Position numbers and translations under genes: made by a program. The notes under the pieces were generated by a model, which ran no database searches, had not been told where the DNA came from, and saw only the letters and a list, made by a program, of their open reading frames with translations. Shown piece by piece: positions 30,766-60,917 of a DNA stretch of 64,000 nt; position 1 is the stretch's first letter, and each line of letters starts with the position of its first letter. Source of the stretch: Desulfatibacillum sp. (lineage in GTDB: Bacteria; Desulfobacterota; Desulfobacteria; Desulfobacterales; SpSt-501); the NCBI GenBank assembly GCA_020725555.1, contig DYEU01000018.1:79113-143112 (forward strand), read 5' to 3'.

Positions 30766-32259
30766 TTACTTGCGCGGCCTGGCCGTGCTCATGATGAGGT
30801 AGCCGTCCCGCAGGCCCTTGTACTCCACCGCGTTCGAAACCGCGTAGACCTCGGGGATGACGTAGAGGTAGACCCAGGGCGCGTCCTCATAGAGGAAGCG
30901 GTCGATCTGATGGTATACCTTGGCGCGCTCGGCGGGGTCGAGGGTCGTGCGGCCCTTTTCGAGCAGCCGGTCGACCGTTTCGTTCTTGTAGTAGTAGTCG
31001 CGGCTCTTCGAGTGGAAGAGCGAGTACATGTAGCGGTCGGGCTCGGGGGCGTCGTCCCAGAAGTAGATGAACATCTGGTGCTGGCGGTTCTTGTAGCGCT
31101 CCCACATCACCGCCCGCTCGTAAGGCTCGAGCTTCACGCGGATCCCGATCTTCCCCAGATCGGCGGCGATGGCCTCGGCCTGCTCCTGGATCTGGGGCAT
31201 GTAGGTGCCGTAGGCGAGCCGCGCCTCGAACCCGTTCGGATAGCCCGCCTCGGCGAGGAGCTTCTTCGCCTTTTCGGGGTCGTAGGGGTAGGGCTTGAGC
31301 GTGGGGTCGGCGCCGAAGGTGCGCGGGCTGATCGGGCCGCGGCAAAGGATGGCCTTGCCCTGGAAGAGCGCCTGGTTGATCAGTTCGCGGTTCACGCCGT
31401 GGTTGACGGCCTGCCGCACGCGCACGTCGTTGAAGGGCTTCTCGTAGGTGTTCAGCCCGAGGTAATTCATGGAGCCCATCTGGTCGGTGAGATAGGCTTT
31501 GCCCGAGGCGAGGATCTTCGGCCGCTGGTGCATGGGGATCCCGCTCACGACGTCGGCTTCGCCCGTGAGCAGGGCGGCGATGCGCGAGGCCTCCTCGGGC
31601 ACGCCGCGGAAGATGAGCCGCTTGTAGGCGGGCTTCGGGCCGTAGTACTTCTCGTAGGCGGTCATGACGACCTCCTGGCCCTTGACCCATCGCTCGAGCC
31701 GGTAGGGCCCGCAGCCCACGGGTTTCAGGTTGTACTCGGCGTCCCCCACCTGCTGGACGTACTTCGGCGGCACGATGAAGAGATACTGCGCGAGCATGTA
31801 GAGCCCGGGGGCGTAGGGCTCGGAGGTGGACATCGTGAAGGTCCGCTCGTCGATCACCTCGACCCCCTTGAAGAGGTTCAGCTTGCCGCGGTGCGGGCTC
31901 TTGAGCGCATCGCCCATCAGCCGCTCAAAGGAAAACTTGACCGCCGCGGCGTCGATCGGCTCGCCGTTGTGGAAGGTCGCCCCCTTCACCAGGGTGAATT
32001 TCCAGGTGAGGTCGTTCAGCTTCTCCCATTTCTCGACCAGACCCGGCTTGACGGTCGCGTCCTCCTGGGGTTTGAGGATCGTGTCGTGGAGGTTGTAGCC
32101 GACGCTCATCGTGGTCTGGATGGAACTCTGCATGATGTCCAGGCCGACGGGCTCGGCCTCCTGCACGACGACGAGCGTGTCCGGGTCCTTGGCCGCCGCG
32201 GGCTGAACCGCAAGGGCCGCGGCCCAGAGAACCGCCAGAATGATTGCCGTCTTGCGCAT
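30766..32259 (-). CDS. ABC transporter substrate-binding protein, family 5 (peptide/nickel/opine type)
   Basis: 497 aa, signal peptide MRKTAIILAVLWAAALAVQPAAA, family-5 length and blocks. Confidence 0.85.
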   Translation of the reverse strand: MRKTAIILAVLWAAALAVQPAAAKDPDTLVVVQEAEPVGLDIMQSSIQTTMSVGYNLHDTILKPQEDATVKPGLVEKWEKLNDLTWKFTLVKGATFHNGEPIDAAAVKFSFERLMGDALKSPHRGKLNLFKGVEVIDERTFTMSTSEPYAPGLYMLAQYLFIVPPKYVQQVGDAEYNLKPVGCGPYRLERWVKGQEVVMTAYEKYYGPKPAYKRLIFRGVPEEASRIAALLTGEADVVSGIPMHQRPKILASGKAYLTDQMGSMNYLGLNTYEKPFNDVRVRQAVNHGVNRELINQALFQGKAILCRGPISPRTFGADPTLKPYPYDPEKAKKLLAEAGYPNGFEARLAYGTYMPQIQEQAEAIAADLGKIGIRVKLEPYERAVMWERYKNRQHQMFIYFWDDAPEPDRYMYSLFHSKSRDYYYKNETVDRLLEKGRTTLDPAERAKVYHQIDRFLYEDAPWVYLYVIPEVYAVSNAVEYKGLRDGYLIMSTARPRK

Positions 32260-33299
32260 CAGGTCCTCCTCTCTTCAGGGGTTGGGGGTGAGGCGCCCGG
32301 CTCGGGCGCCGGGGAAACGGTCTCTCCCGGCGGGGAGCCGCCGTAGAGGTGGCAGCAGACGATCCGGCCGTCGGCCGGTCGGCGCGGCCGGGGGTCCTCC
32401 TCGCGGCAGACGGCCAACGCCTCGGGGCAGCGCGGGTGGAAGCGGCAGCCCGGAGGGGGGTCGATCGGCGAGGGGACGTCCCCCGGCAGCAGGATCCGTG
32501 TTCGCCTGCGGCGCGGGTCGGGAACGGGCACGGCCGAGAGCAGGGCGCGCGTGTAAGGGTGGAGGGGGTTCTCGTAGAGCTCCCGCACCGGCGCCGTTTC
32601 CACGATCCGGCCGAGGTACATGACCCCCACGCGGTGGCTCACGTAGCGGACGACCGCGAGGTCGTGCGAGATGAAGAGCAGCGAGATCCCGAAGCGCCGC
32701 TGGAGCTTGACGATGAGGTTGAGGATCTGGGCGCGCACGGAGACATCGAGCGCCGAGACCGGCTCGTCGCCGACCACCAGCCGCGGCCGCAGCATGAGCG
32801 CCCGCGCGATGCCGATCCGCTGGCGCTGCCCGCCCGAGAACTCGTGGGGGAAGCGGCGCCGGTGCTCCGGGTGCAGCCCCACCACCTCGAGCATCTCCGC
32901 GACCCGCTCGCGCCGCTCGGCGGCGGAGAGCCGTTCGTGGTTGAGCAGCGGCTCCTCCAGGGTGCGCTCGACCGTGAGCCGCGGGTTCAGGGAGCCGAAG
33001 GGGTCCTGGAAGACGATCTGCATCTCGCGCCGCATCCGGCGCAGCCCCTCGGGGTCGAGGGCGAGAACGTTTCGACCGCGGAACCACACGCGGCCCGCGG
33101 TGGGCTCGATCAGCCGCAGAACGGCGAAGCCCGTGGTCGACTTGCCGCACCCCGACTCGCCGACGAGGGCGTAGGTCTCGTTCGGCGCGATCGCGAAGCT
33201 CACCCCGTCGACGGCGTGCACGCGGGCCCCCCGGCCGCCCCACCCCCGGCGCACCCGGTAGTGCTTGACGAGCCCCTCCACGCGCAAGAGCTCATCCAT
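32259..33299 (-). CDS. ABC transporter ATP-binding protein (DppF/OppF type)
   Basis: Walker [18 protein letters not shown]-type signature FSGGQRQRIGIARAL, C-terminal oligopeptide-type extension. Confidence 0.88.
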   Translation of the reverse strand: MDELLRVEGLVKHYRVRRGWGGRGARVHAVDGVSFAIAPNETYALVGESGCGKSTTGFAVLRLIEPTAGRVWFRGRNVLALDPEGLRRMRREMQIVFQDPFGSLNPRLTVERTLEEPLLNHERLSAAERRERVAEMLEVVGLHPEHRRRFPHEFSGGQRQRIGIARALMLRPRLVVGDEPVSALDVSVRAQILNLIVKLQRRFGISLLFISHDLAVVRYVSHRVGVMYLGRIVETAPVRELYENPLHPYTRALLSAVPVPDPRRRRTRILLPGDVPSPIDPPPGCRFHPRCPEALAVCREEDPRPRRPADGRIVCCHLYGGSPPGETVSPAPEPGASPPTPEERRT

Positions 33300-34299
33300 C
33301 CACCGGCCTCCAGCAGGCGACGCGGTGCCCCGGGAGGAGCTCCTCCAGGCGAGGGGCCTCGCGGCGGCAGATCTCCGCCGCCCGCGGGCAGCGCGGCGCG
33401 AAGTGGCACCCCGGGGGCAGGGCGAAGGCGCTCGGCACGACGCCCGGGATCTCGTTCAAGCTCTCGGTTTGAAACGAGGCGTCCGCGCGCGGGATCGAGG
33501 CGAGAAGCCCCCGGGTGTAAGGGTGCAGGGGGGTTTCAAAGAGCGCCGCCGTGGGGGCCTCCTCCACGAGGCGGCCGGTGTACATCACGGCGACCCTCCG
33601 GGTGACCTCGGCCACGACGGCGAGATCGTGGGTGATCAGCAGAATCGCCGTGTGCAGCTCGGCGTTCAGGGAGAGCATCAGATCGAGGATCTGGGCCTGG
33701 ATGCTCACGTCGAGGGCGGTCGTCGGCTCGTCGGCGAGCAGGAGCGCCGGCCGACAGGCGAGCGCGATCGCGATCATCACCCGCTGGCGCATGCCGCCGG
33801 AGAGCTGGAAAGGGTATTCGCGCACCCGCCGCTCGGGGGCGGGCACCCCCACGCGGCCGAGCATCCGGGCGGCGCTCGCGAGGGCCTGGGAACGGCTCTG
33901 CCCGCGGTGGACGCGGTAGACCTCGGCCAGCTGGTCGCCGATCGTGAAGACGGGGTTGAGCGCGGTCATCGGCTCCTGGAAGATCATGCTGATCCGGTTG
34001 CCGCGCAGGGCGAGGATGTCGCGCGGATCGGCCCGGAGCAGGTCGCGGCCCTCGAAGCGGATCTCGCCGCCCGCGAAGAGGGCCGGCGGGACGGGAAGGA
34101 GCCGCAGGATGGAGAGGGCGAGCACGCTCTTGCCGCAGCCCGATTCGCCGACCAGCCCCACGACCTCGCCCGCGGCGACGTCGAGGCTGACCCCGTCCAC
34201 GGCCACGCCCGTCCCCTGCGGCGTGCGGAAGTGGATCTTGAGCCCGCGGATCGAAAGAAGAGGCATCCTCGGATCGGAAGGCGTCACGGCGGCGTTCAC
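33292..34299 (-). CDS. ABC transporter ATP-binding protein (DppD/OppD type)
   Basis: Walker [10 protein letters not shown], signature [12 protein letters not shown]. 8-nt overlap with the next gene. Confidence 0.88.
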
Positions 34300-34393: not shown

Positions 34394-35347
34394 TCAGGAC
34401 CCCCGCCGGCTGGGCGAGAAGGCGAGGCGGAAGCCCAGCCCGGCGCCGTAGTAGTCCTCGGGGAAGCCGAAGCGGCGGCTGCAGCGGGCGCTCCAGTCGT
34501 CGAGGCTCCAGGAGCCGCCGCGGATCACGCGCTCGGTCACCCCGCGCCGCGGGCTGCGCGCCTGCGGCGCAACGGCGACCGCGCCCGGGACGTAGACGTC
34601 CGCGCACCACTCCCAGACGTTGCCGCTCATGTCGTGGAGGCCCAGGCCGTTGGGCGCCTTGCGGCCGACCGGCTGCGTGGTCCCGCCGCTGTTTTCGGCG
34701 TACCAGGCGACGCGGTCGATCTCGTCCCCGCCGGCGTAGAGTTCCCGTTTCCCGCCGGAGCGGGCGGCGTACTCCCACTCGGCCTCGGTCGGGAGCCGGA
34801 ACTCGCCGGGCCCGGGCGAGCGCTCGCGCAGCCGGCGGATGAACTCCTGGACGTCCGCCCAGCTCACCTGTTCCACGGGGTACTCCTCACCGAGGCGGAA
34901 ATGGGAGGGGTTCTCGGCCATGACCTTCACCCACTGCCCCTGGGTCACGGGGGTCTTGGCGAGGTAGAAATCCTCGATGACCACCTCGCGCAGCGGGGTC
35001 TCGTTGTCCCAGCCGACCTCGAAGAGATCGCCCATGGCATAGGCGCCGCCCTTGACAAAGACGAACTCCATGCCGGTCACCGGCTCGACGTAGCGGTCCC
35101 CCGTCTCGCCGGGGCCGCCGGCCGGCCGGCAGTGCGGGCATTCGGAAGCGGCGGGCGGGAGGAGGCGTCCGCAGGCGGCGCAGGCCAAGCGCCGGCCGCA
35201 GCCGGGGCAGCGCTTCCAGTGGGGCTTGATGTCGCGGCCGCAGCCGGGGCAGCGCGACTCCGCGAGCGGCCGCTCGCAGGCGGGGCAGAACGTCCACTCC
35301 GGCGCGACGGGTTCGCCGCAACCCGGGCAGCGCAGCGGCTCGGTCAT
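34394..35347 (-). CDS. formylglycine-generating-enzyme (FGE-sulfatase/SUMF1) domain protein with N-terminal multiple zinc ribbons
   Basis: N-terminus CPGCG..CPAC..CPGCG..CPGCG..CAACG..CPHC, then the FGE blocks ...[11 protein letters not shown]...[13 protein letters not shown]...RVIRGGSW. Confidence 0.85.
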
Positions 35348-35438
35348 CGGGGTTCTCCTTCGGCAGGGGCGCCCCCGCGGGGCGTGTTCCGGGGAAATGT
35401 ACGCAAAACGGCCGGTGAATTCAAACCCGGGGGGCGGC

Positions 35439-37289
35439 TCAGGCGGCGGCGTTCAGGGCCTGAAGCAAGGCGCCGGGAAGCTCGGCGGGGCCCTTGCCGA
35501 TGATCGTGAGAAAGCGCTCGGGGACATCGGCCCGCGGCAGCGCGGCGATCTCGTAGCGGCCGCAGACGTATTGCAGGGCAAAGACGCCGGGTGCGTCTCG
35601 AAAGGAGATCAGGCCCTTCGCCCGGAAGATGCGGTCGGGGAGCCCTGCGAGCGCCGCAAGGAGGGCCTCGCGCTCGCAGGGGGCGGTGAGGTGCAGGGTG
35701 CGGCTCCAGAGGCCGGATGCGGCGTGGGTCAGGCCCGCGGCGGGCGCCCTTGCGCCGGATGGCCGCCCCGCCGGCTCGGCGTCGAGGATCCAGGCGGGGT
35801 TCAGGTCCCCCTGGACGGCCGTGAAGCGCGGCGCCGAAGGGTTGATCCCCGCGAGGAGCCGCTCGAGGGCCTCGAGGCCCGCATCGTCCACGAGATCGCG
35901 CTTGTTCACGACGAGGATGTCGGCCGCCCGCACCTGGTCGACCGCGAGCGGCTCCTCGGCGAGCAGCCGCGCCGCGTGCACCGCGTCCACGAGGGTCACG
36001 GTGCAGTCGTAGCGCACGAGCGCGCCCCAGTCGGGCTCCTCCTCGAGCAGGTGGAGCGGGTTGGCGAGCCCCGAGGTCTCGAGGATCACGCAATCGGGGG
36101 AGAAGCGGGCGAGGATCCCGTGCAGCGCGCGCTTGAGGTTCCCCGAGAGCGTGCAGCAGACGCAGCCCTCGTCGATCTCGGTCACCTCGTAGTCGAGGAG
36201 CTTGCCGTCGAGGCCGACCTCGCCGATCTCGTTTTGGATGACGGCGACGAAGCGGTGCCGCTGGCTCTGGTATTCGAGGAAATGCCGCAGGAAGCTCGTC
36301 TTGCCCGCCCCGAGAAAGCCCGTGAGGATGATGAAGGGCGGCCGCTCGTCCACGCCGAGGAGCCGCTTTTCCAGGCTGCGCCCCGGCGTGAGGCCGTGCG
36401 CGCGCCACCACAGGCGCTCCCGGTATTCGGCCGGGGCCCCCTCCTGTCCCCCCGCCTCGAGCGCGGCCCACACCGGCCCCGGTTCGACCAGCGCCGGCTT
36501 CTCGAAGGGAACCGCCCCCCCGGGATCGCCGAACGTGAGGCGGAGCAGGCGGGTCCGGAGGTCGGGGGCAGGGCGGCGAGACGCTTCCCCTTCCCCGGAG
36601 GCGACGATTTCGCAGGCCGGGTGGCGCGATTCCCGCAGCCGTGCCGGGGGGCGGCCGAGTTGGAAGGCGAGCGAGGCGGCCAGGGCCTCGAACAACGGCA
36701 GGGCCGTCTCCCAGGCCGGGAAATCCGCGTCCACCCCGCCCGGGGCGACGAGCCAGCGGACCTCCCCCCCGGCTTCGACGCCGACGCCCGCGGCGGCGAT
36801 CGCGCGCAGGCGCTCCGGGGCCTCGAGGGCCAGCGTCGCCGCCGCCCGGTCGCAGCGCAGCGCCAGGCGGATCACGGCGATTCCGAAGAGATCGGCGAAC
36901 CCCGCCTCCGTGGTGAACCGGCGCACCCGATCGCGGTAGCCCTCGCGCTGGGTTTCGGCCGCGGCCCGGACGGCGAGCGCCTCCACCCGCTCTTCCTCGG
37001 GGTCCGGGAAGTAGCACAGGCCGAAACGCCCGGCGGTCCACCCCGCGGGGGCCTCCTCCGTCTCCTGGAAAAAAACGCCGAAGACGCCGGGGGCGGCGGC
37101 GATCTTGGCCGTCCAGGCTTCCGCAGCCCCCGGGGTGAGGCTCAGCCCGCGCCAGCCCAGCGCGTGCCGCACGGCGGGAACGAAGTGGGCGCGCATGAGA
37201 ATCGCCCGCAGGAACCCGGGCAGGGCGACCCCGGGATCGGAGGCCGGGTCGAGGTGGGCGATCTCCTCGAGCGGGAGCGCCGCGGGCAT
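35439..37289 (-). CDS. CobW/G3E-family GTPase metallochaperone with a ~350-aa N-terminal extension of unknown function
   Basis: Internal ATG 37289 of ORF 35439..37514 ([13 protein letters not shown]...). P-loop GFLGAGKTS, metal motif [24 protein letters not shown], CobW C-terminal domain. Confidence 0.8.
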
Positions 37290-37312
37290 GGGAACAGCCT
37301 CTCGCCCAGGCT

Positions 37313-37705
37313 TCAGTATTCCACCTTCCCGCCCTTGGGCCCGCCCCAGGCGAAGCTCTTGATCCTGCCGTCCTTCCAGCCGAGGGAGAAGATCCGCACC
37401 GTGCCCTTGGCCGCCGGCGAGTCCTTGCACTCCTCCACGCGGGACTCCACGGTGTAGACGGTCAGGCCGCCCTTTTCTTCGGTCTTCTGGAGGACGGGTT
37501 TCGCCATCTCGCACTTGGTGAGCTCAGGGGGCACCACGCCGGGGTCGGCGTATTTCTCCAGCACCGCGGCCCGCTTGGCGCGGTCGGCGAAGGCGTCGAT
37601 CACTTCCTGCATCTGCGGGATGGGCTTCTTCCCCACCACCGCGACCAGAAAGGGAAGCAGGGCGAACACGAGCAGAAAACGCGCCCACGAACGGTTTCGT
37701 TTCAT
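37313..37705 (-). CDS. small signal-anchored/exported hypothetical protein (130 aa)
   Basis: MKRNRSWARFLLVFALLPFLVAVVGKK hydrophobic N-terminus (Met23 of ORF 37313..37771). I recognised no family. Confidence 0.55.
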   Translation of the reverse strand: MKRNRSWARFLLVFALLPFLVAVVGKKPIPQMQEVIDAFADRAKRAAVLEKYADPGVVPPELTKCEMAKPVLQKTEEKGGLTVYTVESRVEECKDSPAAKGTVRIFSLGWKDGRIKSFAWGGPKGGKVEY

Positions 37706-37787
37706 GGAGTCCTCCCCGCGGTGGGGCGGAAGGGGACCCTTCCGCCCCACCGCCTGTTGCGATGTCTTCACGAGAGCCCGGCCCGGT

Positions 37788-38966
37788 TCAGACGTCGATC
37801 CCGTAGCCGATCTTGTCCCCGTTTCCGAGATAGGCCGTGTCCTTCGACCGGTGGCGGGCCGTGCCCTTGATCACGGGGTAGCCCGCCTCGATGAACTTCT
37901 TGGCGCAAAGAATCCCCGTGCAGTGGTTGCAGCCGATCTTCTTGAAGCCGTATTTGCCGAGCGAAAGGACCAGGTCGTCGTACTTGGGGTCCCAGTCCTC
38001 GAAGGGCGAGATGTGGAGACCCCCGTAGATCCCGTAAAGCTGGTCCTTCTCGTACTTGATCTCGCGGAAGGCCGTTTCCGAGAACTGGATGATCCCGAAG
38101 TGGCAGCAGCCGGTGATGCTGACCAGGCCGTGATCCTTCACGTTCACGTAGATCGACTGCTCGCCGTAGACGCGGCAGATGATCGGGACCGGGAAATTGT
38201 AGGTGGCGAGGCCGGGGATGATGCGGTTCAATTCCCCGGATTTCACCTCGACCAGCTTCCCCTTGTGGCCGGCGTCCTTCAGGTACTGCAGCCCCTCGGG
38301 GTAGAATCCCTGGGGATAGTAGGTGGTGATGTTCGGGTTGTACTTGAAGACGACCGGGATCCCCCAGAAGTGGTCGAAATGCTCGTGGGAGATGATGAAG
38401 GCCTCGATCTCGTTGTCCCGGAGCATCCGGTCGATGCCCTCGCGCTTGAAGCACTCGTCCATCCACTTGTAGGACCAGCCGGAGTCGAGCAGGAACTTTC
38501 TCTTGCGGCCGTCCAGCTCCTCGATCTCGATCAGGGCCGCAAAGCCGCCGGCGTTCTCGGGGCTGACCGAGAGCTTTTCGGTCAGCGCCCAGGCCTCCTC
38601 CAGGTTGTTCGGCAGCAGATGCTTGATCTTGGCGATCCCCTTTTCGTAGCTCCCCTTGCCGAGACCCGTCCCGTCGCCGAAGGGCGGCCAGTTGTAGCTG
38701 TACTGGTTGACGAGCAGGCCGCCCGCCTCCTTGATGTCCTTCATGAGGACGGCGTTCTCGAACCAGCTCGTCTCCGAGATGTTCGTCACCTTGACGGATT
38801 TGCAGACGCCGATGTCGGCGAGCTTGCGTTTCACCTCCGGGAAGTAGGATTTCCTCCAGGGGGAATACGAGAACAGCCCCATCCCCAGGACCGTCCCCCC
38901 CATCACGCCCATCGCGGCGCCCTTGAGGAAGCCGCGGCGGCTGATCGTGGTCTTCTCTTCGGACAT
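37788..38966 (-). CDS. Tat-exported MBL-fold metallo-hydrolase (COG1237-like)
   Basis: From Met34 of ORF 37788..39065: MSEEKTTISRRGFLKGAAMGVMG twin-arginine signal, HEHFDH (HxHxDH) motif, later TGCCHFGI and GCNHCTG blocks. Confidence 0.8.
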   Translation of the reverse strand: MSEEKTTISRRGFLKGAAMGVMGGTVLGMGLFSYSPWRKSYFPEVKRKLADIGVCKSVKVTNISETSWFENAVLMKDIKEAGGLLVNQYSYNWPPFGDGTGLGKGSYEKGIAKIKHLLPNNLEEAWALTEKLSVSPENAGGFAALIEIEELDGRKRKFLLDSGWSYKWMDECFKREGIDRMLRDNEIEAFIISHEHFDHFWGIPVVFKYNPNITTYYPQGFYPEGLQYLKDAGHKGKLVEVKSGELNRIIPGLATYNFPVPIICRVYGEQSIYVNVKDHGLVSITGCCHFGIIQFSETAFREIKYEKDQLYGIYGGLHISPFEDWDPKYDDLVLSLGKYGFKKIGCNHCTGILCAKKFIEAGYPVIKGTARHRSKDTAYLGNGDKIGYGIDV

Positions 38967-38989
38967 GGCTCCTCCTTGTCGGGGCACGG

Positions 38990-40402
38990 TCACTTGATGA
39001 CCGTGATGTTCTTGTAGGCCCAGGGCAGCACGCTCAGGGTGATGAAATAGACCGCCACCCCGCACACCGCCCCCACGCCGAGGCCCCAGCCGAGCGCCGG
39101 GTTCCAGCGGACCTCGGAGAGCCGCGCCTGCTCCGCGGCATGCTCGGCCGCGATCTCCTCGGCGGTCTTGGGCACCATCTTCCAGGCCGGCCAGTTGTCC
39201 ATGAACCAGTGGTGGACCAGCCAGATGTTGATCAGCCAGATGGTCGGGATCATGGGGAACTGCTGCTCGTGCATGAAGCCCTTCTGGGTCCCGAGGTAGT
39301 CATGGGAGGTCTTGTAGTAGAAGATGTAAAGCGCGATCGCCGCGGCGAGCGTGATCACCGTGCGCAAAAAGACGTTCACCGGCAGGCTGAAGCGCCGCGG
39401 CCAGTTGTTGCAGTAAAAGGTCAGGAAAAGCGCCGGGACCAGGAAGAAGACCGCCATCTCGCCCACGTGCAGCCAGCGCCAGTCGGGCGCGTTGATGAGG
39501 CGGGTGCCCCGGATCGCCGGGCCCCAGGTCAGCTCCTGGGCGAAGTAGAGGAAGAAGTGCATCGCCCAGGCGATGGCGATGATCCCGAAGAAGGCGACGG
39601 TGCGGCGCAGCCAGTTCGTCCGGATCAGCTTGAAGGGGAAGCGCTCCCAGATCGTCTCGACCAGCCAGACCGTGACCGTGCAGCACATGATCCAGGCGAC
39701 GTGGAAGTTCCCCGACACCGTGTTCGCGAATTTCTCCCAGTAGGGCGGGGCGATCGCGGTGAAGTACTGCCAGGGGTAGTAGAGAATGCCCATGTGCGAG
39801 TGCATGGTCATGAAGTAGATGAGCGTGCTCAGGAAAAAGGTGAAGACGAGGATGCTGATCCCTTTGGCCGGCTGGCTCAGGTTCTGCCAGGGCACCTCCT
39901 CGCAGGCGACCACCCAGGCGGGGCTCAGCCACGAGGCGATGGCCGCGAACATCAGGCAGGCGAGCGAGGCGTACTCGAGGGCGAAGAACTCGGTCATGCG
40001 CGGCAGCTTCATCAACCGCTCGGGGTTGAAGTAGGCGATCCCGAAGTTGCCGAGGACCGACTCGAAGAAGCCCTTGATCAGCACCCACAGAATCACCACC
40101 GAGATCGCCGTCAGCACCGCCCCCTTGACCAGCGGGTGCGTGTTCTCAAGCCAGCTCCGCTTGAAGGGCCAGTAGTTGAAGATGTAGACCATCCAGATCA
40201 GCATGATCAGCCACCAGCGGGTGTACATGTAGCCCACGTAAGGCGTGTACATCCGCAGCCATCCCCGCGGGTCCTGGAAGACCCACCAGCTCGCGTAGAA
40301 CACGGCGAGCGTCAGCACCAGGGCCACGATCGCCGCGATCGGCTGCGGCCAGCGCGGGATGAGCTTTCGTTCCTCCAGATAGCCGGTGCCGTATCGTTCC
40401 AT
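38990..40402 (-). CDS. Trp-rich polytopic membrane protein, family not recognised (470 aa)
   Basis: From Met49 of ORF 38990..40546 (MERYGTGYLEERKL...) after GAGGAAAGGGGG. Many hydrophobic segments. About 32 Trp by hand count. Conserved-looking His (MHSHMG, NFHVAW, WLVHHWF). Confidence 0.7.
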   Translation of the reverse strand: MERYGTGYLEERKLIPRWPQPIAAIVALVLTLAVFYASWWVFQDPRGWLRMYTPYVGYMYTRWWLIMLIWMVYIFNYWPFKRSWLENTHPLVKGAVLTAISVVILWVLIKGFFESVLGNFGIAYFNPERLMKLPRMTEFFALEYASLACLMFAAIASWLSPAWVVACEEVPWQNLSQPAKGISILVFTFFLSTLIYFMTMHSHMGILYYPWQYFTAIAPPYWEKFANTVSGNFHVAWIMCCTVTVWLVETIWERFPFKLIRTNWLRRTVAFFGIIAIAWAMHFFLYFAQELTWGPAIRGTRLINAPDWRWLHVGEMAVFFLVPALFLTFYCNNWPRRFSLPVNVFLRTVITLAAAIALYIFYYKTSHDYLGTQKGFMHEQQFPMIPTIWLINIWLVHHWFMDNWPAWKMVPKTAEEIAAEHAAEQARLSEVRWNPALGWGLGVGAVCGVAVYFITLSVLPWAYKNITVIK

Positions 40403-40463
40403 GAATATCCCCCTTTCCTCTCGGGTGGGTTGGACAAAACCGCCGAACGCCTCGGCGGCGACT

Positions 40464-40778
40464 TTACCCCTCCGGATCTTCAGCCCCGCAAGACGGGCAC
40501 CCCTCCCCGCCTCCCTGCGGCATGGAGGGCGGCGTGCGCCTCGCAAGCTCTCGGTAAATCGCCCGCCTGAGCGCCGCGGGGTCCTTCAACCCCGGCTCGA
40601 GGCCGCGGCATTCGGCTTCGATTGCGAGCAGCGCCGGGCTGAGCTCGGTTTCCGCCGCGCCGCAGAACGGGTCACGGGACGAATCCGACGAGGGGGGGGC
40701 TGCCGCGGCGGCAAGATCCCCCGCCGCCCGGATGCCCCGGCCGAGGAGATCCCTGAAGAACTCTTTGCGGGAAAGCAT
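40464..40778 (-). CDS. small hypothetical protein (104 aa) with Tat-like S-R-K-E-F-F N-terminal motif and C-terminal CPSC
   Basis: From Met47 of ORF 40464..40916: MLSRKEFFRDLLGRGIRAAG...; GAAGGAGGG RBS. Third-position GC is consistent with coding. No family recognised. Confidence 0.45.
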   Translation of the reverse strand: MLSRKEFFRDLLGRGIRAAGDLAAAAAPPSSDSSRDPFCGAAETELSPALLAIEAECRGLEPGLKDPAALRRAIYRELARRTPPSMPQGGGEGCPSCGAEDPEG

Positions 40779-40790
40779 ACCCTCCTTCAC

Positions 40791-40806
40791 AGCAATTGCG
40801 ATGCCA
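40791..40806 (-). promoter_or_regulatory. sigma54 (-24/-12) promoter motif TGGCATCGCAATTGCT
   Basis: Exact match to TGGCA[CT]-N5-TTGC[AT] on the minus strand. It ends 12 nt before ATG 40778, and the intervening 12 nt contain the SD GAAGGAGGG. Confidence 0.6.
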
Positions 40807-40929
40807 CGGCGCAAGAACCCCTTTTTAAGTGCCAACCGCTCGAATCGACATGTTTTTCTTGAATCGCGGCTCCCGAGCGGACAAGGGTTCCCGGGGAAAA
40901 AGGGAACAGAACGCACTCACTTGAATTTC

Positions 40930-41400
40930 TTACGGGTGCAGATTGCCCCCGGGCGAGGGGCTTTCCCGGAAACCGGGCATGCGGAATTTCTCATCCCCCA
41001 ACCGGCCGCTGCGGTAGGCGGCGAACACTTCACGGGCCTCGCCGCTCACCCCGCTGATCACGTCGATCCCCTCGGCTTCAAGGAAGCTGGAGAGGGTCTC
41101 GCTCACCGCGCCGCAGATCACCGTCCGCACCCCGAGACGCTTGATCTCGCCGGCGCGCTGGGAAAGGGAGGCGCCGGCGAAAGAAACCGTGCGCGCCTCG
41201 GCCTCGCCGCCCCCGCGCGGGTCCATCAGGGTGAGGCAGGTGCAGGTGTCGAGGACGGGGGAGACGCGGCCCCGGAACACGGGCACCGCAACCAGGGACT
41301 GCGGCCGGGGAGGGGGGGATGGCGAAGGGGGCTGCGGGAACGCGGGGATCCCAGGTCGTTTCCGGGCGTTTTCGCAGAAGATGCAGGGACGCCTGGCCAT
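40930..41400 (-). CDS. NifX/NifB-type (dinitrogenase FeMo-cofactor-binding-like) domain protein with a 32-aa Cys/Pro-rich N-terminal extension
   Basis: From Met48 of ORF 40930..41541. SLVAVPVFRGRVSPVLD parallels MRIAVAHWQGRISPVFD of gene 60930. ...VICGAVSETLSSFLEAEGIDVISG. Confidence 0.7.
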   Translation of the reverse strand: MARRPCIFCENARKRPGIPAFPQPPSPSPPPRPQSLVAVPVFRGRVSPVLDTCTCLTLMDPRGGGEAEARTVSFAGASLSQRAGEIKRLGVRTVICGAVSETLSSFLEAEGIDVISGVSGEAREVFAAYRSGRLGDEKFRMPGFRESPSPGGNLHP

Positions 41401-41452
41401 CGGACTTCTCCCCCCTTGCCGGAACGGGTCGCCCGCAACCGGTCTCGAGATA

Positions 41453-41468: not shown

Positions 41469-43043
41469 GGAAGCCGGGGCCCCCCCGCCGCAACGGGACG
41501 GACTGAAGAACGGACCCGTATAACCCAAAGGATCCGCGCACCCAGGCGTTCGGGGAGTACCGGAGTTAGGCTTCCGGCCGGGGTTGACAGGGAAAGCGAG
41601 AGGGAACAACATGCACCCGACGGTGGGCGAAAATCGCGGGTCGCCCCTGGGGGATTCCATGGAGCCGGTTTGCGAAGAGAACGAGCGGCGCCACCACGAG
41701 CTCATCCTCGACAGCATCGAGGAAGGGGTCTTCACGGTCGACCTCACCTGGCGCATCACCTCCTTCAACCGCGCCGCGGAGAAGATCACCGGCGTCCCGC
41801 GGGCCGAGGCCGTCGGCCGCCCCTGCTTCGAGGTCTTCCGCGCCGACGTCTGCGAAACCGGCTGCATGCTGCGCCGCACGCTCGAGAGCGAAACGCCGGT
41901 CGCCAACGTCCTGGTCCACATTTTCCGCGCCGACAAGAAGCGCATCCCCATCCGCATCAGCACCGCCCTGCTCAGGGACCCCGCGGGCCGGCTGGTCGGG
42001 GGGGTCGAGACGTTTCAGGACGTGAGCGCCCTCCAGGAACTGCGGCGGGCCCTGCAGCGGCAGCACCGCTTCGAGGACATCGTGAGCAAGAACCCGCGCA
42101 TGCTCAAGATCTTCGCCATGCTCCCGCAGGTGGCCGAAAGCGGGAGCACGGTGCTGATCGAGGGGGCGAGCGGGACCGGCAAGGAGCTCGTGGCGCGGGC
42201 GATCCACCACCACAGCCCGCAGCGCGAGGGCCCCTTCGTCGCCGTGAACTGCGGGGCGCTCCCCGACACGCTGATCGAGGCCGAGCTCTTCGGCTACAAG
42301 GCCGGGGCCTTCACCGACGCACGGCGGGACCGGGCCGGCCGCTTCGCCCTGGCCCAGAACGGCACGATCTTTCTCGACGAGATCGGCGACATCTCCCCCG
42401 CGCTCCAGGTGCGGCTGCTGCGGGTGCTCCAGGAGCGGGTCTACGAGCCCCTCGGCGCGGGAAAGCCCGTCCCGACGAACGCCCGGGTGATCGCCGCCAC
42501 GCACCGCGACCTGAGCCGTCTTGTCCGCGAGGAGAAATTCCGCGAGGACCTCTACTTCCGGGTCAACGTCTTCAAGATCGCGCTGCCGCCGCTCGCCGAG
42601 CGCCGCGAGGACATCCCGCTGCTCGTCGAGCACTTCATCGACCGCTTCAACCACCGCAGGGGCCGAAACGTCGCCGGGGTCGCCCGCGAGGCGATGGAAG
42701 CGCTCCTGCACCACGACTGGCCGGGAAACGTGCGCGAGCTCGAAAACGCGATCGAGCACGCCTTCGTCCTCTGCCGCGACGACACGATCCGGCTGGAGGA
42801 TCTGCCCGAGCCTCTCCAGGCGGCCGCCGCATCGGGCCGACCGGCCGCCGCGACCACGCTGCGGGACATCGAGCGGGCGGCGATCCTTGCCGCCCTCGAG
42901 CGCCACGGCGGCCGCAAGCTCGCCGCCGCCCGCGAGCTCGGGGTCGACAAGAACACGCTGCGCCGCAAGATGATCCGCCTCGGCCTGCGGCCGCCCCCCG
43001 CCGCCCGGGGCGTCCGGCCTGACCGGGGCGGGCAACCGGCCCC

Positions 43044-46276
<3,233 letters not shown>

Positions 46277-46280
<4 letters not shown>

Positions 46281-60901: not shown

Positions 60902-60917
60902 TGGCACCGCCTTTGCA
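60902..60917 (+). promoter_or_regulatory. sigma54 (-24/-12) promoter TGGCACCGCCTTTGCA
   Basis: Full consensus TGGCAC-N5-TTGCA. It ends exactly 12 nt before ATG 60930. Confidence 0.7.

Follow-up and report, generated by a model that had tools for sequence, protein, structure and literature searches.

Tat-exported redox enzymes (Tat, twin-arginine translocation), which work with a membrane partner and have a cytoplasmic escort of their own, are represented by the systems DmsABC/DmsD, TorA/TorD and the reductive dehalogenase RdhA/RdhB/RdhT. Here, a gene cluster of Desulfatibacillum sp. is described, which lies on a 64-kb stretch of DNA (the window, meaning the whole stretch analysed) and resembles these systems in its layout. 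The catalytic subunit carries an RR leader, a membrane protein is encoded next to it, a cytoplasmic accessory is encoded in the same operon, and the cofactor is presumably loaded prior to export. This is in contrast to the parts themselves: the enzyme has a metallo-beta-lactamase (MBL) fold and does not belong to the molybdo-, corrinoid or Fe-S enzymes, five hairpins without haem or quinone signatures make up the membrane partner, and the accessory combines a novel domain (the N-domain), for which no similarity to solved proteins was detected, with a COG0523 GTPase. The module is real, widely conserved and uncharacterised, and its membrane protein is of unknown fold. Our favoured reading, in which we place about even confidence, is that the module makes and operates a periplasm-facing metalloenzyme, namely a metallated MBL that would be exported by Tat and would work on a channel-like membrane partner.

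A first-pass annotation of this DNA had recognised no characterised pathway of such a composition. This agrees with the searches of Pfam, NCBIfam and the PDB, none of which assigns the membrane protein, the small protein, the periplasmic protein or the N-domain to a family. Public names are generic throughout, and no description of the system was found in public annotation or in the literature searched.

The occurrence of the module was analysed by scanning 185,579 species, each represented by one genome, which yielded 162 loci with a gene for the membrane protein. Of these, the best 80 were combined with six further loci from contig look-ups into a set of 86 loci, in which genes were counted by tblastn and all-against-all clustering of the open reading frames (ORFs). 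The membrane protein is present in 86/86 loci and is 71-96% identical. The MBL gene is located directly downstream of it in 84/86 loci, and the long fused GTPase is present in 75/86, which are 75/75 of those with enough sequence. Gene order and strand of these three are constant across the loci, and the trio spans Desulfobacterota, Spirochaetota/Leptospirales, SAR324, Acidobacteria, Planctomycetota and alphaproteobacteria. Thus, the co-occurrence of membrane protein, MBL and CobW-type protein, for which the first-pass annotation had proposed a neighbourhood test, has been borne out. Recurrence of the core in 75-86 of 86 independent loci puts the arrangement far beyond what chance would produce. 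At the clustering thresholds used, the small RK-motif protein is encoded directly upstream in 39/86 loci. The exported small protein is present in 28/86, a tandem-duplicated form of it in 13, the NifX-like gene in about 24/86, the sigma54 activator in 23/86 and the FGE-like gene in 6/86.

Within the window, ORFs were listed and their coordinates refined by alignment with relatives. Seven ORFs, all on the minus strand, occupy 34394 to 41403, and the gene of a sigma54 activator is divergently oriented upstream of them, in agreement with the earlier gene list, whose domain calls proved mostly correct. The genes of the conserved system are, in order of transcription:

40464..40778, minus strand: small RK-motif protein, 104 aa, with a twin-arginine-like N-terminus (core part 1)
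38990..40402, minus strand: integral membrane protein, 470 aa, five predicted two-helix hairpins and an additional C-terminal helix (core part 2)
37788..38966, minus strand: Tat-signal MBL, 392 aa, metallo-beta-lactamase fold (core part 3)
37313..37705, minus strand: small exported/anchored periplasmic protein, 130 aa, a frequent accessory
35439..37289, minus strand: N-domain (core part 4) fused to a G3E GTPase of the COG0523/CobW type, 616 aa

The gaps are 61 nt between the genes of the small protein and the membrane protein, 23 nt between membrane protein and MBL, 82 nt between MBL and periplasmic protein, and 23 nt between periplasmic protein and GTPase.

More distant relatives define which of these parts belong together. 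A deep search of 1.84 billion cluster representatives retrieved just 151 relatives of the membrane protein, fragments for the most part. Full-length relatives with 33-43% identity still adjoin an MBL of the same subfamily (38-46% identity; L086, L088, L091, L093 and L094). Furthermore, two of these loci, L086 and L091, retain a member of the small-protein family (96 aa, start M..RR(D/E)FL) as well as a free-standing copy of the N-domain of 292-320 aa with no GTPase attached (hhalign probability 98.7-98.8%, E about 1e-16). Because the small protein and the free-standing N-domain are kept beside distant membrane protein/MBL pairs, the conserved core comprises the N-domain and the MBL together with the membrane protein and the small protein, four parts in all. 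To these, the COG0523 GTPase was added and became fixed in the main clade, and the N-domain rather than the GTPase is the conserved accessory, since the distant relatives keep the former without the latter. The G3E GTPase, taken by the first-pass annotation as the system's own chaperone, is thus not universal: it is fused to the N-domain in the main-clade loci and missing from these relatives.

The individual parts have evolved at different rates. The N-domain is only 24-76% identical at loci whose membrane protein and MBL reach 71-96%, and the GTPase next to the membrane protein has diverged to 30-45% identity across phyla. In the window, the membrane-protein and MBL genes cause a dip to 62.5% GC, compared to roughly 71% overall. 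The GC content at third codon positions (GC3) of the two genes is 0.96 and 0.93, equal to that of the neighbours and the host genome, and a recent horizontal acquisition was rejected on these grounds as the origin of the dip. Since GC3 matches the host while GC1/GC2 are low, the dip points to a constrained amino-acid sequence and to a long residence under strong purifying selection. In one Desulfosarcina genome two copies of the module are present on contig CAXXWQ010000004.1 (L063 and L064, at about 84-106 kb and 999-1020 kb); they lie about 900 kb apart and are, by score, equally similar to the query.

For the membrane protein, no Pfam match was obtained with any of 26 diverse family members, no relative was found in sequence and profile searches of the PDB, and tblastn against plasmids gave no match. 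It had been called Trp/His-rich, of which the first half is correct (6.8% W), whereas His is not enriched (2.3% H). A confident AlphaFold2 model based on a 26-sequence alignment reached a pLDDT of 87.7 and a pTM of 0.86; a Foldseek search of the PDB with this model returned no match at E <= 0.001 and TM-scores of about 0.2 or below.

Internally, the sequence is repetitive. Residues 1-170 align with residues 171-340 (hhalign probability 95.6%, E 1.3e-8), and 8/10 pairs of the five two-helix units align nearly end-to-end with scores of 23-32, whereas column-shuffled controls averaged 9-11 and did not exceed 19. The five most conserved prolines of the superfamily (P78, P170, P255, P334 and P404) each lie in a W/F-P motif after every second helix. 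The protein is thus predicted to consist of five tandem two-helix hairpins. From the positive charges and from the short basic C-termini of ten-helix relatives, a cytoplasmic location is deduced for the WP loops. In the main clade, 53-72% of the positions are invariant in the even-numbered helices and 18-42% in the odd-numbered ones, compared to 65% in periplasmic and 42% in cytoplasmic loops. Such a pattern would be expected of five inner helices that form a conserved core or pore facing the periplasm. Because even-numbered helices and periplasmic loops are almost invariant, a channel- or transporter-like protein is suggested. Residues conserved in the main clade include the loop motif MH[SP]HM (86/86), a CC pair in helix 6, H233, H311, E248, E314 and D306.

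The idea that the HxH loop motif tracks the adjacency of the MBL does not hold strictly, as a motif-less relative still has an MBL-like gene end upstream. As a separate observation, the 90%-identity cluster holding the window MBL also lists 470-aa proteins that are named as the membrane protein, which suggests fused or mis-called ORFs bridging the MBL and membrane-protein genes in some assemblies.

A related building plan is found in the TehA/SLAC1 anion channels, in which ten helices form five hairpins around a pore. The ten core helices, the five tandem hairpins and one far more conserved helix per hairpin are shared with these channels; this likeness concerns the building plan only. In contrast, hhalign against E. 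coli TehA gave a probability of 0.1%, there is no SLAC1 Pfam match, and no such entry was among the 50 best Foldseek matches, whose TM-scores are <= about 0.2. Homology of the membrane protein to TehA was rejected on the sequence comparison and the Foldseek top 50.

Within the MBL, the Pfam family Lactamase_B is matched at a borderline 22.6 bits (cut-off 22.7) and the Tat signal TIGR01409 at 19.2 bits (cut-off 16.7). The twin-arginine stretch of the window protein reads ISRRGFLKGAAMGVMGGTVLGMG. An RR.F[FL]K motif is present in 77-81 of 81 homologues, the strict form RR.F[FLI][KR] in 77/81. With an S/T-R-R-x-F-L-K motif that is followed by a hydrophobic stretch, the MBL is a predicted Tat substrate. 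The motifs HxHxDH, GCCH and CNHCTG are each present in 81/81 MBL loci, and among 15 sequences, with identity as low as 48%, no variation was seen in SHEHFDH, TGCCH, GGLH and CNHC. Here, all ligands of the binuclear site (H194, H196, D198, H199, H289, H318 and H348) are invariant, and so are the additional cysteines C287/C288, C346/C349 and C264. The conserved leader, which predicts export, and the intact metal ligands agree with the earlier call of a Tat-exported HxHxDH hydrolase.

The relatives of the MBL in the PDB (7dck, 2p4z and 3h3e, the latter being TM1679; 1e-13 to 1e-16) are COG1237-type or 'DHPS-like' proteins with an MJ0301-type annotation, all of them uncharacterised. They share the MBL fold, and HxHxDH, TGCxH, GGxH and HC(T/S)G align. 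Unlike them, the window MBL is about 140 residues longer, carries a Tat leader, a conserved N-terminal extension, an insertion and additional invariant cysteines, and is always paired with the membrane protein. It forms a distinct subfamily of the metallo-beta-lactamase fold.

Public databases offer a different view, in which the membrane protein is a transporter of the AAT/APC amino-acid family and the MBL is the 7,8-dihydropterin-6-yl-methyl-4-(beta-D-ribofuranosyl)aminobenzene 5'-phosphate synthase of the methanopterin pathway. These are the names given by JGI and UniRef, and the distant relationship of the MBL to COG1237-type structures would fit to the second of them. However, this similarity spans only about 220/392 residues, and the conserved Tat leader excludes a role of the MBL in a cytoplasmic cofactor pathway; the synthase name was rejected for this reason. 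For the membrane protein, an amino-acid-permease Pfam was found in 0/26 members even at E <= 1, Foldseek gave a TM-score of 0.11 to ApcT, and the five-hairpin repeat differs from the 5+5 inverted repeat of APC transporters. The label 'AAT family amino acid transporter' was therefore discarded as well, and that the public names are correct is extremely improbable.

The GTPase part of the fusion matches the Pfam families cobW (4.6e-42) and CobW_C (9e-9) and displays the G3E motifs, i.e., a P-loop, CxCC (GCVCC) and NKRD, with C.CC found in 74/75 homologues. This substantiates the earlier call of a CobW-type CxCC GTPase, whose novel N-terminus had been given as 350 aa and measures about 315-320 aa instead. 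The P-loop, CxCC, NKxD and CobW_C are shared with ZigA, YeiR, ZNG1, Nha3 and CobW. Unlike these named COG0523 proteins, the window GTPase carries the N-terminal domain of ~315 aa and is genetically tied to a single putative client with a predicted Tat export. Its scores fall well short of all NCBIfam equivalog cut-offs (CobW 101 vs 332, ZigA 82 vs 600, PRK11537 100 vs 361). For the N-domain, sequence and profile searches gave no match in Pfam, NCBIfam or the PDB, and two of three large protein searches returned 1-2 matches only.

Two small proteins accompany the core. The RK-motif protein has the twin-arginine-like N-terminus MLSRKEFFRDLL and the conserved motif ELSPxLLxxEAExRGL, with no match in Pfam or NCBIfam. 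The periplasmic protein, for which neither Pfam nor the PDB gave a match, contains two invariant Cys and an invariant extreme C-terminus, GPK[GS]GKVEY (GPKGGKVEY in the window); a lipobox is present in many homologues, but not in the window copy. The tandem-duplicated form, which replaces or joins this protein in 13 loci (L004, L005, L013, L015, L016, L020, L028, L030, L031, L035, L043, L068 and L072; e.g., L005:13106-13801), also lacks a Pfam match, and each of its halves contains the motif M.ECM.SHGS, which may bind metal.

The regulatory part of the locus and the NifX-like gene are located upstream of the operon:

41659..43092, plus strand: sigma54 enhancer-binding protein, OrpR-like, with PAS, AAA+ and HTH_8 domains
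41602..41617, minus strand: upstream activating sequence candidate 1, GGTGCATGTTGTTCCC, ~150 nt upstream of P1
41454..41468, minus strand: sigma54 promoter-like element P1, GGGAAC-N5-TTGC, preceding the NifX-like gene
40930..41403, minus strand: small NifX-like (Orp-like) protein whose N-terminus carries a CIFC motif, a lineage-specific accessory
40902..40950, both strands: upstream activating sequence candidates 2a/2b, an inverted 16-mer pair (40935-40950 plus, 40902-40917 minus)
40792..40806, minus strand: predicted sigma54 promoter P2, TGGCAT-N5-TTGC, immediately 5' of the small-protein gene

The activator matches Sigma54_activat (1.2e-65), PAS_4 and HTH_8. Its ORF could begin at 41584; a start at the methionine at 41659 agrees with the relatives. 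It is divergent and conserved in 23 loci. Its PAS domain contains the motif C-x8-C-x3-C with E at +2, which is conserved among orthologues. OrpR (DVU2106) of Desulfovibrio vulgaris Hildenborough (DvH) has C52, C61 and C65 as well as an acidic position 54 and binds a redox-sensitive [4Fe-4S] cluster, and this triad keeps the regulator active at low redox potential only (PMC8359166). The OrpR regulon in DvH comprises solely the two orp operons (PMC8359166). By its Cys triad and domain set, the window activator is classified as OrpR-type and is predicted to bind an Fe-S cluster. Like OrpR and its operons, it combines PAS, AAA+ and HTH with C-x8-C-x3-C and the acidic +2 position, and its gene is divergent from a sigma54-driven NifX-like (Orp-type) gene. 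Unlike in DvH, a second predicted sigma54 promoter with the same 16-mer drives the membrane protein/MBL operon, and the DvH palindrome is absent.

Elements with the -24 GG and the -12 TGC at a fixed distance were taken as promoter candidates; their number across the window is not above chance. P1 has a counterpart, GGGCAC-N5-TTGCT, at the equal relative position in L002-L013 and L019, and P2, with one mismatch to the consensus, is kept as TGGCAC-N5-TTGCT at its position in about 20 loci. This positional conservation across the layout-A loci (see below) supports the prediction that P1 and P2 are sigma54-dependent promoters. Furthermore, an alignment of 12 loci revealed a common 16-mer, GGTGCA-N3-TGTTCCC, which is found once upstream of P1 and twice, in inverted orientation, upstream of P2. 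In the window, the copy at 41602-41617 (-) has 0 mismatches and is the sole perfect match, and the copies at 40902-40917 (-) and 40935-40950 (+) have 2 each. The association with the activator, noted earlier as adjacency, thus goes further and comprises two conserved promoter elements with a common upstream sequence. Elsewhere in the window, 60902-60916 (+) is the only perfect TGGCAC-N5-TTGC and may be another sigma54 promoter.

Since two sigma54 promoters are present, the cluster comprises at least two transcription units. The seven genes of the first-pass annotation do not form a single conserved unit. The NifX-like gene is separated from the small-protein gene by 151 nt. Its product matches Nitro_FeMo-Co (PF02579) at 23.8 bits (cut-off 26.3) over profile positions 36-93 only and gives a weak NCBIfam match to the MrpORP C-terminal domain (4.5e-5). 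With its own promoter and its restriction to about a quarter of the loci, the gene is not a constant part of the unit, as the first-pass annotation had it. Because of the MrpORP match its product is best read as an Orp-type target of the OrpR-like regulator and not as a proven cluster donor for the MBL. The membrane protein/MBL operon would best be read as an addition to the OrpR-like regulon in this clade.

Two regulatory layouts were observed. Layout A, that of the window, consists of the activator, the NifX-like gene and then the operon. Layout B, found in about 36 loci, consists of a PAS/GAF-like protein, a GntR/FCD regulator and then the operon, with no sigma54 activator. NifX-like gene and sigma54 activator are lineage-specific. 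In 28 loci of layout B (L016, L027, L032 ... L084; e.g., L084:7774-8733) the regulator is preceded by a protein of 310-440 aa without a Pfam match, whose N-terminus is PAS-like and whose GAF-like C-terminus (YPYEGTIAENI...SIKPIDWALF) is strongly conserved. An Rfam scan for a riboswitch that would name the metal gave no match.

The OrpR-type control and the cysteines of the MBL would also fit to a periplasmic redox or detoxifying enzyme, i.e., an MBL fold with a di-iron site or a Cys-ligated cluster that reduces or transforms a small inorganic molecule. Here, flavodiiron proteins would be the precedent for the fold, maturation would be aided by NifX-like or Mrp-type carriers and the GTPase, and the cluster would make Tat export necessary, the route typically taken by cofactor-loaded proteins. 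The additional invariant Cys do flank the ligand motifs (TGCCH, GCNHC and IICRV), and some loci contain NifX-like and Mrp-type genes. However, the core is without a flavodoxin, cytochrome or ferredoxin partner, and no His or Cys that could serve haem or quinone chemistry is conserved throughout the superfamily of the membrane protein. NifX-like genes are missing from most loci (present in 24/86), and the nearest solved relatives of the enzyme are ordinary COG1237-type MBL proteins. Such an enzyme is therefore regarded as quite improbable.

Returning to the periplasm-facing metalloenzyme, the following course of events can be proposed. The MBL would fold in the cytoplasm, where the COG0523 GTPase would supply its metal. 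The N-domain of the GTPase may act as a system-specific escort or adaptor, or as a metal-insertion factor; the escort function is suggested because it is the sole accessory kept where the GTPase is absent. The small protein with its leader-like RK/RR N-terminus could join in or regulate this escort step. Subsequently, the metal-loaded MBL would be exported by Tat and would work docked on the 470-aa membrane protein, which as a channel- or transporter-like protein would hand the substrate to the MBL or take the product away. Cytoplasmic loading and Tat export would be explained by the scarcity of free thiophilic metals in the periplasm under sulfidic conditions. In this lineage, sigma54 would drive the operon under the OrpR-type activator, and expression would be expected at low redox potential because the PAS domain carries the Cys triad for Fe-S binding.

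While the anatomy of the locus, its conservation, the gene pairing, motifs, repeats and promoter elements are shown by the analysis, we infer the physical complex, the metal, the escort role and the order of events, and several observations weigh against this proposal. The Tat leader may be retained as an anchor, because the segment YSYSPWRK after the hydrophobic stretch of the MBL is kept in 77/81 homologues. No polar residue invariant across the whole membrane-protein superfamily was found, and a catalytic or binding site is thus not pinned down. The AlphaFold2 model of the N-domain, based on a three-sequence alignment, reached a pLDDT of 34, which leaves the escort role conjectural. The DvH OrpR palindrome GGGCGYRTTTTGCGCCC has no match near the promoters with up to 3 mismatches, and the redox rationale is limited to one clade because about 36 loci use GntR/FCD and PAS/GAF proteins. 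Finally, Pfam enrichment among 281 neighbouring ORFs did not reveal a recurrent catabolic pathway, and therefore no clue to the substrate.

In a bolder and tentative version, which we consider possible, the five-hairpin membrane protein and the exported MBL as its obligate partner would be an undescribed membrane-bound machine of the periplasm. This would be either an enzyme-channel pair, in which hydrolysis is coupled to substrate passage across the membrane, or a new metal conduit. Its assembly would depend on a COG0523 chaperone, which a new adaptor domain would make the first one dedicated to a Tat-exported client, with the leader-mimicking small protein in control of this step.

The module represents a promising model for how bacteria load an enzyme with metal ahead of export. 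COG0523 GTPases are abundant and their clients have been established in few cases; here, the fusion and the genetic lock make the question of the client directly testable. If a Tat-exported MBL with a private chaperone is confirmed, it would be a clear case for fixing the metal of an enzyme before the periplasm is reached, notably in sulfidic habitats. Furthermore, the membrane protein constitutes a new family with a five-fold hairpin repeat of an unusual kind, and its sequence is extremely constrained (across phyla, 71-96% identity). Among the Desulfobacterota, sulfate reducers and syntrophs widely carry the module, and a new periplasmic activity of that group is thus at stake.

The genes surrounding the module vary widely from locus to locus, the commonest Pfam family among the 281 sampled neighbours being Usp, and the module seems to be self-contained. 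Mrp/ParA-type carriers account for 5/131 upstream neighbours. In about seven loci of differing phyla, ExbB-ExbD-TonB genes are located 3' of the GTPase gene on the same strand (e.g., L051, L061, L067 and L081/L082; L081:15203-16831), and no TonB-dependent receptor was seen near them in those loci. In one locus from the Desulfobacterota (L037:3111-7154), a cation diffusion facilitator fused to a NifX-like domain is encoded upstream of the system, beside a P-type cation ATPase and a tandem Usp.

Neighbours of this kind bring up a metal-trafficking module, in which the membrane protein would be a metal-ion channel or transporter and the whole set would acquire or distribute scarce metal under sulfidic conditions. 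The COG0523 GTPase, the periplasmic proteins bearing Cys, His and Met, the NifX-like carrier and the MBL as a metal-dependent or metal-binding component would all serve this purpose, and no organic substrate would be involved. The ExbB-ExbD-TonB genes, the locus with the facilitator fusion and the P-type ATPase, and the Mrp/ParA-type carriers are in line with this, as are the invariant His, Cys, Glu and Asp in the helices of the main clade and the M.ECM.SHGS motif of the tandem periplasmic proteins. However, these metal-related neighbours are sporadic, the His, Cys and acidic residues are not kept in the distant MBL-paired relatives, and the regulators are not of the metalloregulator type. The intact and invariant binuclear catalytic site of the MBL in particular argues for an enzyme. 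Metal trafficking as the function of the whole set is consequently considered unlikely.

Downstream of the GTPase gene, the following neighbours are located after gaps of 91 nt (GTPase/FGE) and 94 nt (FGE/ABC ATPase):

34394..35347, minus strand: double-zinc-ribbon and FGE-fold protein, a neighbour outside the conserved system
33292-34299, minus strand: peptide-type ABC ATPase gene, the downstream neighbour

The first of these matches the FGE-sulfatase Pfam (3.6e-50) in addition to its double zinc ribbon, and its closest relative in the PDB is the variable protein 2y3c of T. denticola (a Treponema surface protein). It had been counted as a component, which would lead to one seven-gene operon with sulfatase-type maturation, i.e., an FGE-like protein that modifies the exported enzyme. 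Its position on the same strand directly behind the GTPase gene would allow this, and an FGE-like gene is adjacent also in the two closest loci, L001 and L002. However, it is missing from 80/86 loci, and both catalytic (copper-binding) cysteines of the C-x-x-x-x-C pair are missing, as CHDSYC of S. coelicolor FGE (6muj) aligns with SLDDWS in the window protein. Moreover, the exported enzyme is an MBL and not a type I sulfatase with the target motif C/S-x-P-x-R. Due to its absence from most loci and the lack of the catalytic cysteines, the FGE-like gene is a neighbour and no component, and sulfatase-type maturation is very improbable.

The genes flanking the system are unrelated to it. On the downstream side, a peptide/nickel-type ABC transporter set occupies 30766-34299 (-) with two ATPases carrying oligo_HPY tails and a family-5 solute-binding protein; this set is not kept beside the system in the closest relative L002. 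On the other side, the gene of an AcrB-type RND efflux pump at 43044-46280 (-) runs towards the sigma54 activator gene and slightly overlaps its 3' end.

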